The translations under genes were made by a program, and so were the position numbers. From NCBI GenBank assembly GCA_026770705.1, contig JANJGN010000010.1:113026001-113090000 (forward strand): 64,000 nt of DNA, read 5' to 3'. The DNA comes from Isurus oxyrinchus (lineage: Eukaryota). Under the pieces are notes generated by a model. The model had not been told where the DNA came from. It was given only the letters and a program-made list of their open reading frames with translations, and searched no databases. Of this stretch, positions 1 to 4,770 are shown piece after piece (the stretch's first letter is position 1; each line of letters begins with the position of its first letter).

Positions 1-360
1 CTTAACAAACTAAATCAAAATATAGTTTTTGGAGCTGACGAAGCACTCCAGCCCCCTTGGTGCTCACCAGCTGCAGAATTCCTCAATTACACCAGCGGAT
101 ACCACATGTTCCTTCTCCATGAACACCCGGCCGTGAACATCGCTGTGGAAGAGGGGCAGACAGTTGAAATTTATCTTTTTACTCTTTTTAAACAAATCAA
201 TAAAGTAAATCATTTGACAAATTAAAGTGATAGCCCCTTAAAAGGGCACTGTAACAAATAGGCAAAACTTCAACTAAAACTCAAGTTGGATTAAAATGTC
301 ATTTCCGGGACTGACGATGCACTTCAGCCTCCGTGGTGCTCACTGGTCGCGGGAGAGGAG
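1..360 (-). mobile_element. Two tandem 5'-truncated 3' ends of a Tx1-like (L1-clade) non-LTR retrotransposon
   Basis: Reverse strand of ~10-162 translates as CLPLFHSDVHGRVFMEKEHVVSAGVIEEFCSW*APRGLECFVSSKNYILI*, resembling the C-terminus of Tx1 ORF2. A second copy with an AT-rich 3' UTR lies at ~174-355. Confidence 0.7.
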
Positions 361-1021
361 GACCCTGGGACAGGCAGTCAACAGCACCTTGAGGTGTGTG
401 AGAGCGGCAGAGGTGGCAGGAGATAAAAACTGGCAGCAGAGAGGGAGGCCCAGCACACGGAGAGTGGACTTGAGTGAGAAGGGTAGCAGTGGTGGGAGAT
501 AAAAACTGGCAGTAGATAGCCCCCTCAAGCTGTTTCCAACTGTTAGAGCTGAAGTGTGACGTCAAAGGGAAACAGGTAGGTGATTGGTGGGCATCTCTCC
601 CTTGTCTCTTTTGATTGGCCAAGTGGTTTAAATCAGGAGACGTTATTACAGCTGAAGAGTAAAGTTAAGAAAATCACTTTTAAAATATTTAACATCCAAA
701 TTAATTAATTAAATATAGATATGGCTGGGCAACCGATGTGTTGCAGTATGTAGTATGTGGGAGATGGTGGACACAAGCGCGATCCATGGTGACCATGTCT
801 GCAGCAAGCGTTGGCTGCTCCAGGAACTTAGACTCAGAGTTGATGAGCTGGAATCCGAGTTATGGACACTGCGATACATCGAGTGGGGCGGGGGTGGGGG
901 AAGAGTTACCTGGACACTGTTTCAGGAGACGGTCACACTCCTTAGATTAATTATATCAAATTTGAACCATGGCCAGGGATAGGAAGATGTGACTGTGAGT
1001 GAGGCAGGTATGGGGATCCAG

Positions 1022-1771
1022 AGATAAAATCAAAATATTGCGGAAGCTAGAAATCTGAAACAAAAACAAAAATTGCTGGAGAAATTCAGCAGGTCTGACA
1101 GCATCTGTGGAGGGGAAGACAGAGTTAATGTTTCAAGTCCGATGACTCTTCATCAGAACTAAAGAGAAATAGAAATGTGGTGAAATATAAGCTGTTTAAG
1201 GGGGGTGGGACAGGTGGAGCTGGATAGAGGGCCAGTGATAGGTGGAGGCAAAGGAGAGATTGCCAAAGATGTCATAAACAAAAAGTCAAAGGGGTGTTGA
1301 CAGTGGTGATATTAGCTAAAGGATGTGCTAATGGTGACATTAAGGCTAGAAAACTGGATGAGCAAGTGACAGATAGCCCTAGTGGGGGTCGGGTGGGGGG
1401 AAGGGATCAAAATAGGCTAAAAGGTAGAGATAAAACAATGGATGGGAATACATTTTTAAAATAATAATAGAAATAGGTGTGATTATTATTATTAGAAAAA
1501 AGGGGATCAAAAAGGGGGTGAGGATGGAGGGGAGAGTTTATGATCTGAAGTTGTTGAACTCAACGTTAAGTCCGGAAGGCTGTGAAGTACCTATTCTGAA
1601 GATGAGGTGCTGTTCCTCCAGTTTCTGTTGAGCTTCACTGGAACATTGCAGCAGGCCAAGGGCGAACATGTGGGCCTGAGAGCAGGGTGGTGTGTTGAAA
1701 TGTCAAGCGACAGGAAGGTCTGGGTCATGCTTGCAGACAGATCAAAGGTGTTCCACAAAGTGGTCACCTGG
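1022..1771 (-). mobile_element. 5'-truncated Penelope-like element inserted in CR1 ORF1 with 12-bp TSD
   Basis: Reverse complement matches the GIY-YIG C-terminus and 3' region of the element at 41690-42400. ATGGGGATCCAG is duplicated at 1010-1021 and 1772-1783. Confidence 0.9.
1123..1160 (-). ncRNA. Minimal type I hammerhead ribozyme motif of Penelope-like element
   Basis: Minus strand reads agtt CTGATGA a gagtc atcg gactt GAAA catt aact: stem I agtt/aact, intact CUGAUGA and GAAA boxes, stem II gagtc/gactt. Confidence 0.65.
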
Positions 1772-4344
1772 ATGGGGATCCAGTGTTTAGCTTTGGTGGT
1801 GCCTCAGCCAGTGCCCTTGACCAATATATGAGGTCTTGCTCCTGGTGTAGATGAGGCACAGACTGCAGGGAGAATGAGCAAACTGACCACAGCACCGTGG
1901 TACAGAGTGCCATTCTAGTGGGGGAAGAAAAGAGAAATGTAGTAGCAATAGATGATAACATAGTTAGGGAGTAGATACTGTTCTCTGCAGCAAAGACAGA
2001 GTCCCAAAAGCTGGGTTGCCTACCTGGTGCCAAGGTTAATACAATCTCTTCTGGGCTGGAGAGGAACTTGGATTGGGAGGGGAAGGACCCAGTTGTCGTG
2101 GTCCATGTTGGTGCCAACGACATAGGTAGGAGTAGGAAAGAGGTTCTGCTGAGGTACTAGGAGCAGCTTGGGACTAAGTTTAAAAACCAAAACCACGAAG
2201 GTAATAATTTCCAGGTTACTAGCTGAGCCATGTGTAAATTGGCATAGCGTGAATAAGATTAGCGAGGTAAATGTGTGGCTAAAAGATTGGTGTGTGAGAA
2301 ATGGGTTCCGATTCATGGGGCACTGGTACCAATACTGGGGGAAGGAGAGAACTGTTCTGTTGAGACAGGCTGCATTTGAACCATGCTGGGACCAGTGTCC
2401 TGTCAAATCGTATACTAGGGTTGCAGATAGGCATTTAAACTAATTAGTGGGGTGGAGGGCTCAATTGAAGGGAAGTTTAAAAAATCAAAAAGAAATGCGG
2501 GAGCAGAGGTGCAGGGTAGTGAAGAGGTTAACGATAATCAAAGTGTGACAAGGGGCAGAAAATATTAGCAGAAGTGTGCAGCCGAAATTACAACCAGTAT
2601 GAGTAATAATGGTAAAAAGTCTAAGCTTAAGGGTCTTTTACAAATGCTGCGTGCATTCAGGCATAAGTTAGATGAGTTGATGGAACAAATAGAAATAAAC
2701 AAATATGACTTGATAGCTATTACAGAGATGTGGTTGCAGGGTGACCAAGACTGTGAACTCAATATTCAAAGGTATTCGACATTCTAGAAAAGTAGGCAAA
2801 AAGGAAAAGGAGGTGGGGTAGCTTTGTTAATAAAGAAAATTATCAGTGCGGTGGTGAGTAGTGTTTTAGGTGCAAGAGATAGTGATGTGGAATCAATTTG
2901 GGTGGAAATAAGGAATAGCAAGGGGAAGAAGTCACAGGTGGCAGTCGTCCATAGGCCCCCGAAGAGTTGCCTCACTGTAGGACAAAGTATAAATTAGGAA
3001 ATAATGGAGGTGTGTAAGAAGGATGCTACAATTGTCATGGGTAATTTTAATCTGCATATTGACTAGGCAAGTCAGATTGGCAGGGGTACCATGGAAGACG
3101 AATTTGTAGAGTGCATCAGGGATTGATTCTTAGAGCAATATGTTGCAGAACCTACCTGGGAACAGGCTATTTTAGATCTAGTAATGTGTAATGAGTTGGG
3201 ATTAATAAGAGATTTTGTAGTTAAGGATCCTCTAGGGGCCAGCGATCACAACATGGTAGAATTTCAAATTCAGTTTGAGGGTGAGCAACTCGGGCCTCAA
3301 ACCAGTGTTCTCAACTTAAATAAGGGCAATGACAGAGATATGAAGAAAGAATTGTCTAAAGTTGGCTGGGAAAATAGACTAAGGGGAAGATCAGTGGATG
3401 AGCAGTGGCAGACATTTAAGCAGATATTTCATTGTGCTCAGCAAAAATTTATCCCAGTCAAAAAGAAGGACTCGATGAGAAGGATGAACCACCCGTGGTT
3501 AACAAAGGCAGTCAAAGAGCGTATCCAATCAAAAGCTAAGGCATGCAAAACGATGAAAACTAGTGGTAAGCCAGGGGATTGGGGATTTTTAGAAACCAGC
3601 AGCGGATGACTAAAAAGCTAATAAAGAGGGAGAAAATTGATAATGAAAGCAAATTGACAAGAAATACAAAAACAAACAGCAAGAGCTTCTATGGGTGTAT
3701 AAAAAGAAAGTGGCTAAAGTGAGCATGGGACCCTTAGAGGATGCAACTGGAGAATTGATGATGGGGAACAGGGAAATGTCAATCATTTAACCCAATATTT
3801 TGCAACAGTCTTCATGGTAGAGGACACTATAAACATCCCAAAGAATTAGCTAAGCAAGGAGCTAATGGGAGGAAAGATCTTGTAACAGTCTCTATCACAA
3901 GGGACAAAGTATTTGACAAACTAATGGGATTAAAGGCAGACAAGTCGCCAGGACCTGATGGCCTGCATCCAAGGATTTTAAAGGAAGTGGTTGCAGAGGA
4001 GGCATTGGTTGAAATATTCCAGAACCCACTGGATTCTGGGAGGATCCCAGCAGATTGAAAAACCACTGTTGTGACGCCCTGTTCAAGAAGGGAGGGAAGC
4101 AAAAAGCAAGAAACTATAGGCCAGTCATTGAGAAAATGCTAGAGTCCACAATTAAGGAAGAAATAGCAGGATATTTAGAGAAGCTTAACACAATCAAACA
4201 GAGTCAACATGGTTTTGTGAAAGGGAAATGATGTTTGACAAACTTGCTTGAGTTCTTTGAGGATATAACAAGCAGAGTTGATAAAGGGAAACCAGTTGAT
4301 GTAGTGTATTTGAACTTCTATTTCCTATTTCTTATGTTCTTTTG

Positions 4345-4770
4345 TTCTTTATATTCTTGAGTGAATACGGTTAACAACTGAGCAAATTTTTAAAAAGCCT
4401 CTTTAAAAGAAAACACTATCAGAAACTCCAAAGGAAGCTTAACTAAATTAAAATATCATTTTATGGGATGAAGAAGCACTCCAGTCCCTGCAGTGCCCAC
4501 TGATAGCAGAAGGCTCAAGCATGTCAGCGGGCAGCATGTGCTCTTTCTTCACGGACACCTTGCCACGATGTAGCCACAGAAGAGGGCTTTTCTCTTTATA
4601 CTCTTGAGTTAGAACAAATTAACAAATTAAATTGAGGTGATAGCTACTTAATGGAACACTGTAATAAAAGACAAAAATCTTAAATGAAGCTTATCAAATC
4701 AAATTAAAATATTATTTTGGGGTCCAGTGATGCACTCCAACCCCTGAGGTGCCCACTGGTCGCAGAAGGA
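4345..4770 (-). mobile_element. Two further tandem 5'-truncated Tx1-like 3' ends
   Basis: Reverse strand gives PLFCGYI..KVSVKKEHM..FCYQWALQGLECFFI..NDILI* (4443-4586) and FCDQWAPQGLECITGPQNNILI* (~4700-4769). Both are homologous to 1-360. Confidence 0.7.

Follow-up and report, generated by a model that had tools for sequence, protein, structure and literature searches.

Five Tx1-clade LINE 3' ends stacked at the TATAAA motif of a shark LTR, with shared 5' starts that may be set by the resident copy

The window, by which we mean the whole 64,000-nucleotide stretch analysed, begins with a stack of Tx1-clade LINE 3' ends arranged head to tail. Four lie within it on the minus strand, as the earlier note on this DNA had described, and they form one family of four 75-nt copies with 65–72% identity to the reference; self-BLAST of the window also links them (E 1e-4 to 1e-11). 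Extension to the left, which that note had advised, recovered a fifth unit (U0) just outside the window, in locus L031, together with the 3' half of a host LTR. All five units sit at the TATAAA motif of this solo LTR, and they are separated by copies of a target duplication (TSD) of about 15 bp, TATAAAGAGAGACTG. From the 5' half of the host LTR leftward, the features are:

4784..4855, minus strand: 5' half of the host LTR, a Copia (GalEa-like) solo LTR of about 215 bp, with its TGTTAA start at 4855 (40 matches scored)
4769..4783, minus strand: first copy of the target duplication, about 15 bp, the LTR's TATAAA site, degenerate here
4601..4768, minus strand: Tx1 3' end U4, the last ORF2 codons and a 3' UTR ending in AAGAG; starts at profile position 987
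4586..4600, minus strand: target duplication between U4 and U3
4354..4585, minus strand: Tx1 3' end U3; starts at profile position 912
4344..4353, minus strand: target duplication remnant after U3, fused with the CR1 tail
353..4345, plus strand: decayed CR1-type LINE with ORF pieces; the repeat at its head begins at query position 9, which is 353
182..352, minus strand: Tx1 3' end U2, its true 5' end lost beneath the CR1
167..181, minus strand: target duplication between U2 and U1
1..166, continuing leftward into L031 10000-9886, minus strand: Tx1 3' end U1; starts at profile position 901
L031 9871-9885: target duplication between U1 and U0
L031 9596-9870: Tx1 unit U0; starts at profile position 900
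L031 9581-9595: target duplication beyond U0, followed by the LTR 3' half
L031 about 9580-9453: 3' half of the host LTR, left of the window

The ORF termini of U1, U3 and U4 read as WAP[QR]GLEC..[NY]ILI*-like words, whereas U2 continues to NDILIQLEF*. The LINE at 353..4345, which we take to be a CR1 from its ORF1, ORF2 and tail motifs, is a later arrival in opposite orientation that entered the U3/U2 junction and split the stack, its head at about 353 clipping the 5' junction of U2. The motif that the note had seen at every junction is indeed there (169-181, 4342-4353, 4588-4600 and 4772-4784), but the last of these, read previously as a copy outside the final unit, is the TATAAA site of the host LTR itself. 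The motif alone is not rare, with 11 sites at no more than one mismatch to a 10-mer on the plus strand of the 64 kb, and it counts as evidence because it is present at every junction. Of the units in the window, U4, U3 and U1 do start at different positions, the first of them (987) at a genome-wide hot spot for 5' ends, but U1 and its downstream neighbour U0 have a common start and U2 has been clipped by the CR1.

Affinity with Tx1, already suspected, is borne out by reverse transcriptase (RT) comparisons. The RT of a sister family matched YTX2_XENLA (Tx1L) with 456 bits and 55% identity across the whole 379-aa fragment, against 112 bits for human L1 ORF2p in a search of a different database. 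An LTR-resident copy aligns to Tx1L residues 687-1207, and the RT piece of L196, the longest LTR-targeting copy and one that reaches the C-terminal RT, is 47% identical to Tx1L and 46–69% identical to sister copies. The window units alone gave only E 3.3 and 7.3 and are joined to the family by DNA similarity. Copies of the LTR-targeting family are about 15% diverged, and none among the recovered loci was full-length or carried an endonuclease; an APE endonuclease lies N-terminal to the RT in sister-family copies L100 and L101. An ORF2 RT much nearer Tx1L than L1 places the LTR-targeting family in the Tx1 clade.

The host LTR is of TG...CA type, 211–217 bp long, with a TGTTA start, a TAACA or TATCA end and the primer-binding site (PBS) TGGTAGCAGAG. 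A permissive search found a 5-bp TSD (at least 4/5 matching) around the LTR in 18/46 loci, and the PBS adjoins 3/91 LTR ends; LTR-end-plus-PBS matches numbered 25, with none in the control. Pfam scans run straight on the decayed Copia pieces returned no Copia family, and in the long L248 frame only the first fifth matched Copia proteins, most of the frame being a GIY-YIG/RT element that had inserted there. A gag-integrase-RT order is apparent from a colinear match to P0130 with PF00665 and PF07727, which includes L236, an LTR of the same type as in the window and likewise filled by Tx1. The LTR ends, 5-bp TSD, PBS, domain order and RVT_2-type RT identify the host as a Copia LTR retrotransposon. 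In the portions of PMC3587641 and PMC5445492 available to us, the GalEa clade is distinguished by a PBS that is strictly TGGTAGCAGAGC, by a KARLVA motif and by RT/RH phylogeny. The host resembles it, to judge from the same portions, in LTR size and ends (CoRex1/2), in KARLV and in gag-integrase-RT order, but its PBS matches at 11 of 12 positions, the twelfth being A or G and not C; it may be called GalEa-like on its LTR, PBS and motif rather than on an RT tree. From its position in the LTR, the TATAAA motif is a candidate TATA box.

Across the genome, an LTR half adjoined the unit in 24/29, 16/29 and 19/28 unit-selected loci (counted with sister families included and without removing duplicates), and units were present in 11/29 and 12/29 LTR-selected loci, that is, in 23/58 of the LTRs sampled; all loci were top matches of similarity searches rather than a random sample. 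Filled LTRs hold their units, as many as 8 of them, between the 5' and the 3' half, and one inverted piece (L156/L200) stands against an otherwise fixed site and orientation. In a position table built from 50, 104 and 46 junctions, locus-specific TSD variants run across whole arrays, with TSD identity of 0.80 within arrays versus 0.75 between them, and the junction sequence tracks the local LTR variant and not the element. The partial text of PMC4494074 takes a non-LTR retrotransposon as target-specific when more than 20% of its flanks are one repeat; in flank share, site, orientation and TSD the LTR-resident Tx1 family is such an element. The loci establish the target, its duplication and the stacking of units there, and TSD copies between units at the LTR TATAAA agree with the specific, regenerated target predicted from the window. 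Empty examples of the same target also occur (43 exact 25-mers, against 0 in the control). Because they exist and because the TSD varies with the LTR, we reject self-targeting of an undescribed sequence, which the note had entertained. Its view that the target is no snRNA or tRNA stands: for a small-RNA gene target of the Keno or Dewa type, L033, L163 and L058 gave no Rfam match at E<=0.1.

We then examined where units begin, after merging overlapping loci into 175 clusters and excluding L030 (a duplicate of L028) and units cut by a locus edge. Among 162 adjacent pairs, 47 start within 6 nt of each other, where permutation expects 5.8 (maximum 15 in 5000), and 21 have exactly equal starts against 0.8 expected; arrays with canonical TSDs alone give 32/101 against 5.1. 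In many arrays a common truncation point is the norm, which makes differing truncation a weak argument for independent insertion.

The 3' ends tell of separate origins. For the UTR tests, units without a locatable TSD were dropped and 124/245 kept. An array-mate was the nearest 3'-UTR relative in 0/54 start-sharing units and in 0/5 units of the window array (among 122 other units), and 0/45 tree cherries were drawn from one array. UTR identity was 0.683 between sharing mates versus 0.684 between arrays; 23 empty LTRs gave a higher value, 0.81. A simple DNA tandem repeat is rejected on these counts, as neighbours are not closest relatives. Thus, of the two signs of tandem duplication named in the earlier note, shared truncation points are found and closest kinship of neighbours is not; separate RNA origins of the units, in keeping with the independent insertions that it had argued for, are supported.

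The 5' ends, by contrast, show signs of inheritance. The first 30 nt of sharing pairs show excess identity of +0.093, +0.067 and +0.056 versus +0.027, +0.017 and +0.026 (753 control pairs), an excess that fades to about 0. In L094, an array of the sister family (whose youngest subfamily stands at about 90% identity), three 1.4-kb units have in common a 4-bp deletion absent from 14 other copies compared, all four three-way rare variants fall in the first 180 nt, and the UTR types differ. A triplet test for chimerism in the LTR-targeting family was flat (mate 0.51–0.57 in the first 200 nt). Adjacent sharing pairs have slightly more rare alleles in common over the full length of the unit and not just at its 5' end (0.76–1.38 versus about 0.7 per 100), and whole-length rare-variant counts per pair mostly overlap controls, with almost none in L216 and L217. 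What the data establish is that 3' ends are independent, that 5' junctions are shared and that, in the younger sister family, private variants close to the junction have been inherited. Because starts are shared without mates being closest relatives, and because junction variants are inherited, we conclude that units derive from independent RNAs yet often adopt the 5' junction of a neighbour.

We propose that a new Tx1 insertion would prime at the TSD upstream of a resident copy, that its nascent cDNA could anneal to the resident's top strand, which would act as an extended target duplication, and that this strand would then prime second-strand synthesis, the new copy inheriting the resident 5' start. 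That the five copies stacked at the LTR TATAAA, and shared starts generally, reflect such annealing is our main reading, to which we give a probability of roughly 60%. We lean, at slightly better than even odds, towards the broader proposal that the resident copy sets the next 5' end, the cDNA being captured by homologous top strand just past the TSD, so that the target DNA and not the enzyme falling off would fix the point of 5' truncation. On this view chimeras would arise throughout the genome, and in no fewer than two sister families that use different targets, with extended target duplications measuring from tens of nucleotides to about 200 nt. For such growth there is precedent in tandem R1 copies of Drosophila rDNA, which are separated by a 14-bp TSD and arise by insertion into the resident's 5' TSD, the second strand being primed by cDNA annealed to the target top strand, according to the parts of Stage and Eickbush 2009 (PMC2718515) consulted; R1 differs in clade and in its rDNA target, and a term search of that partial text found no mention of tandem R1 copies sharing 5' truncation or inheriting a neighbour's junction.

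The direction of growth, towards the upstream side, is suggestive only, and the strongest rival reverses it. A cDNA primed at the downstream TSD of a resident copy might leave its RNA, switch to the upstream neighbour, whose 5' part it would copy, and anneal at the duplicated TSD, giving the same chimeras with opposite polarity. This accounts equally well for common starts, for UTRs of independent origin and for inheritance at the 5' end, and the available part of bioRxiv 10.1101/2024.08.27.596794 describes L1 cDNA that pairs with homologous DNA in its vicinity. Under this rival the last pair should share more often than the first, but sharing was seen in 7/30 last pairs and 16/28 first pairs (Fisher p 0.015). 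In the sister family the younger UTR type lies upstream in 7/8 informative arrays by motifs picked after viewing the arrays, and in 8/11 (p 0.07) by an objective age proxy, again opposing it. Age proxies (non-CpG divergence, CpG retention and nearest-relative identity) revealed no gradient in the LTR-targeting family, where, of 44 sharing pairs, 16 had the less diverged unit upstream and 24 the more diverged one (p 0.30) and the first unit was younger by a second proxy in only 16/33 arrays, a slight and non-significant lean towards growth at the 3' junction. We consider that polarity unlikely overall.

A little less probable still is tandem duplication of a founder between TSDs, followed by TPRT-primed gene conversion of each 3' part. 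The slight rise in rare-allele sharing over the whole unit would fit, as would a coding identity of 0.734 versus 0.702 and the presence of near-identical true duplicates (96–100%) in sister array L102. Unit order (from output for L216, L217, L218 and L222) also offers something here: L218, a-a-b-a-a-a-b-c-c, partly resembles block duplication, and simple upstream growth does not account for it. A length comparison bearing on our main reading found the interleaved unit to be shorter than the block around it in 7/10, which is not significant. Duplication with conversion, however, requires two processes, demands that every sampled duplicate has lost its UTR (0/54), and leaves the asymmetry of first and last pairs without a reason.

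If insertion simply recurred at the regenerated TSD, by the route of R1 and SINEU-3, shared starts would be mere hot spots of TSD-set microhomology. Genome-wide hot spots do exist (22 starts at 980-989, 17 at 1090-1099), as does junction microhomology of 2–4 nt. The permutations retain these hot spots and still fall far short of the observed counts, in all arrays and in canonical-TSD arrays alike, so that hot spots alone are largely refuted; shared points are moreover locus-specific (486, 531, 646, 716, 799, 866 and others), and an inherited 4-bp deletion could not be produced this way. We regard the explanation as improbable. Least credible is the spread of a composite LTR-plus-Tx1 by Copia or LTR transcription: the insertion point is the LTR TATAAA motif and a PBS follows two filled LTRs, but first units begin at many different points across LTRs, filled solo LTRs carry their own 5-bp flanking duplications (9 of 18 TSD loci), empty and filled LTRs are equally common, and the only mutual duplicates are L028/L030.

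Some of this was known. In the text of Kojima 2015 (PMC4494074) accessible to us, crocodilian Tx1-8_Crp and Tx1-4_AMi prefer 'specific groups of LTR retrotransposons', and tandem SINEU-3 copies, of the Tx1-Mar/SINEU-3 system, flank a 16-bp TSD and are interpreted as sequential insertions. The crocodilian elements likewise use another transposon as target, but that text gives no LTR superfamily, site or shared truncation points, whereas here the site is the TATAAA of a Copia LTR. Xenopus Tx1L, from the same source, inserts in Tx1D, a non-autonomous piggyBac, again a transposon but not an LTR. Tx1 targeting of LTRs and TSD-separated stacks (crocodilian SINEU-3, Drosophila R1) thus have precedents in these partial texts; the sharing of 5' truncation between adjacent units is less expected than the targeting. 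Within literature coverage that stopped short of the PMC4494074 supplements on crocodilian LTR targets, which may bear on novelty, we found no report of a Tx1 at a Copia LTR, nor of tandem LINE arrays whose copies inherit truncation points. L1 insertions of a templated or chimeric kind are reportedly the subject of an older cell-culture paper. In the available part of bioRxiv 10.1101/2024.08.27.596794, nascent L1 cDNA anneals to homologous sequence close by, and a short stretch of the genome is duplicated; those events are rare, somatic and scattered, whereas the shark arrays are germ-line, involve about a quarter of adjacent pairs and would have the resident copy as partner.

That a LINE occupies the predicted promoter motif in about 40% of the Copia LTRs sampled extends the crocodilian habit and is the lesser novelty. 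These arrays bear on how non-LTR retrotransposons complete the 5' junction and on why most copies are 5' truncated, as they hold hundreds of natural events with homologous sequence exactly at the site of second-strand priming. Shared truncation points in tandem LINE arrays are not proof of DNA duplication, and chimeric copies would mislead subfamily trees and dating. If our reading is true, Tx1 stacks would be a natural record of second-strand priming.

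An earlier note had placed four related units in the window, and both their positions and their kinship were borne out. A fifth unit, U0, lies a short way outside the window, on its left side. Read on the minus strand, the locus is a Copia long terminal repeat (LTR) split by stacked 3' ends of a Tx1 element, U4 to U0, which are separated by a target-site duplication (TSD).

Order of features in the window array, read on the minus strand
4855-4784, minus strand: LTR 5' half
then TSD, U4, TSD, U3, partial TSD
about 353-4345, opposite orientation to the units: CR1-type LINE, between the partial TSD and U2
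then U2, TSD, U1, TSD, U0, TSD, LTR 3' half

The LINE at 353-4345, which we take to be a CR1 from its motifs, starts at ~353 with its head, to which the 5' junction of U2 was lost. This head is retained, with two 76-bp repeats (395-519), as is ORF1; in ORF2 the early reverse transcriptase (RT) runs straight into the tail, an internal deletion, and the tail overlaps the TSD by microhomology. The 5' starts of U1 and U0 match (profile positions 901 and 900), and yet the UTR of U1 is closer to that of a unit from a different contig (score 0.81) than to that of U0 (0.40).

On their own, the window units score weakly against Tx1L (E 3.3 and 7.3), and their assignment to Tx1 is made because DNA similarity ties them in. 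L196, a long copy in the same LTR type, aligns to residues 687-1207 of Xenopus Tx1L ORF2 (E 5e-38), and the RT frame of a sister family is 55% identical to the Xenopus Tx1L protein across its whole 379 aa; human L1 ORF2p gives 112 bits against the same frame. The element ends in AAAAGAG. The family is large, a C-terminal protein query returning 10,466 first-look candidates (150 scored), and its sister subfamilies have other targets; among the loci examined, none of the copies of the LTR-targeting family was full-length. At G000:C21:113.17-114.06 Mb, five matches to this query agree in query span and identity, four of them also in score, and probably represent a segmental duplication bearing one LTR-inserted copy (L103, L227).

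The DNA flanking the arrays is conserved on both sides and is also found uninterrupted. This target is an LTR of 211-217 bp that starts with TGTTAA and ends in TAACA or TATCA, with 5-bp flanking duplications (at least 4/5 in 18 of 46 loci under a permissive search). A TGGTAGCAGAG-type primer-binding site (PBS) follows 3 of 91 LTR ends, two of these three LTRs being Tx1-filled, and 25 further LTR-PBS junctions were found, with none in the control. The internal regions are colinear (gag, integrase, RT) with a protein bearing rve and RVT_2 domains. These features identify the target as a Copia element; it resembles GalEa elements (PMC3587641 and PMC5445492), which it matches in LTR size and ends and nearly in PBS.

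Of the loci chosen by unit similarity, 24/29, 16/29 and 19/28 have half an LTR next to the unit; of those chosen by LTR similarity, 11/29 and 12/29 are filled. The exact empty 25-mer site occurs 43 times (control 0). The duplication, examined at 50 first, 104 internal and 46 last junctions, measures about 15 bp (TATAAAGAGAGACTG) and lies at a TATAAA whose position suggests the TATA box of the LTR. Because local LTR variants of the motif recur through whole arrays (e.g. L024, L132, L206; L013, L146, L157, L198, L203; L202; L211), it must be the target, not the element, that supplies the spacer; TSD identity is 0.80 within arrays vs 0.75 between them. Other insertions also occur here. L050 has, as judged by eye, a tRNA-like insert just after the TATAAA site, and L246 (7143-7974, reverse orientation) has an 830-bp non-Tx1 insert at the same site, in only the 3' LTR of a two-LTR Copia copy.

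We mapped 245 units in 81 LTR-anchored loci onto a 1180-position profile. Of 162 adjacent pairs, 47 had 5' starts no more than 6 nt apart (permutation mean 5.8, maximum 15, 5000 permutations), and 107 of the 223 units in multi-unit arrays had a start in common with some mate (expected 26). Base-exact matches numbered 21 pairs (expected 0.8), and arrays with canonical TSDs alone gave 32/101 sharing pairs (expected 5.1). The shared point varies between arrays, and the bases immediately after the TSD are also common to sharing units.

The 3' ends behave differently. Sharing units are not simple DNA duplicates: UTR identity of sharing mates is 0.683 vs 0.684 between arrays. It also lies below the 0.81 identity found among 23 empty LTRs of greater age, a comparison that spans differing alignment methods and a low-complexity UTR. 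The UTRs form subfamilies, which occur across many arrays. With 124 of the 245 units usable, the nearest UTR relative was the sharing mate in 0/54 units, and none of 45 tree cherries paired two units of a single array (chance expectation 0.6). Coding identity is slightly higher in sharing pairs (0.734 vs 0.702), mainly within the first 30-80 nt. That stacked units combine a shared 5' junction with an independent 3' end is well supported.

The pattern is sharper in a younger sister family, which has another target. Three 1.4-kb units in L094 have an unusual junction in common and, within 180 nt of it, a 4-bp deletion along with three further rare variants; the deletion is missing in the 14 other copies that are shown out of 19 found. 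The UTRs of the three units are of types 4, 2 and 2. L216 and L217 each hold three units with a single start and three UTR types, and hardly any rare variants are shared beyond the junction; inherited tracts can therefore be very short. The stacked sister arrays with shared 5' starts (L094, L216, L217, L218, L222; e.g. G000:C6:33272001-33282000) lie in a different target repeat, at ...GTGCAAC^TACATCTTCTTAACC..., and form a dated series of UTR types. L218 (2187-7136) has nine units in the order a-a-b-a-a-a-b-c-c, and at every junction the TSD core is followed by an additional CATT; two 1157-bp units are near-exact over the first ~90 nt with different UTRs. A frame near the sister copy L096 is, judged by eye from its motif, presumably Harbinger transposase-like.

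Other stacks differ in site. In L102 (G000:C10:67015001-67025000), L081, L093 and L220, a young subfamily has its end, ...ATTATCAAGAG^TTCAAATCTCAC, within a short tRNA-like repeat that matches an Rfam tRNA weakly (E 0.078) and whose tail is that of the sister Tx1 family; the near-identical tandem copies of L102 (96-100%) are probably a true DNA duplication. A further stacked variant (L074/L219, G000:C1:194518001-194528000) has junctions ...AAAGAG^TATATCCCCGG... and a start common to two units.

For the mechanism and direction behind the shared junctions, we infer that new copies insert into the TSD lying upstream of a resident one, which is the simplest single process. The top strand past that TSD would be the resident's 5' end, complementary to the new cDNA; pairing and second-strand priming there would give the new copy the same start as the resident, together with a variable tract of the resident's sequence. 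The last junction would offer no such homology, and a new start would arise there by microhomology. Published work describes related steps: tandem R1 arrays extend at the 5' TSD and second strands are primed by cDNA-target annealing (PMC2718515), and L1 cDNA is able to pair with homologous DNA nearby (bioRxiv 10.1101/2024.08.27.596794). Upstream insertion predicts that the first pair of an array shares more often than the last pair, as observed (16/28 vs 7/30, p 0.015). It also predicts younger units upstream: in sister-family arrays the younger UTR type was upstream in 7 of 8 informative cases (3/11 uninformative), with types chosen after inspection of the arrays and between-locus identities of 0.82, 0.84, 0.85 and 0.90, and in 8/11 by an objective proxy (p 0.07). 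Against upstream insertion, however, no age gradient was found in the window's family, a triplet test was flat, rare-allele sharing is mildly raised along whole units and the L218 order is not fully explained. Growth on the 3' side with a template switch, the mirror of upstream insertion, is possible, as is DNA duplication followed by 3' conversion.

According to PMC4494074, crocodilian Tx1 families prefer LTR retrotransposons and crocodilian tandem SINEU-3 copies are separated by TSDs. None of the literature searched, whose coverage was incomplete, describes the inheritance of truncation points. The window array is a real, genome-wide target-specific stack, and the stacking itself is of a known kind.
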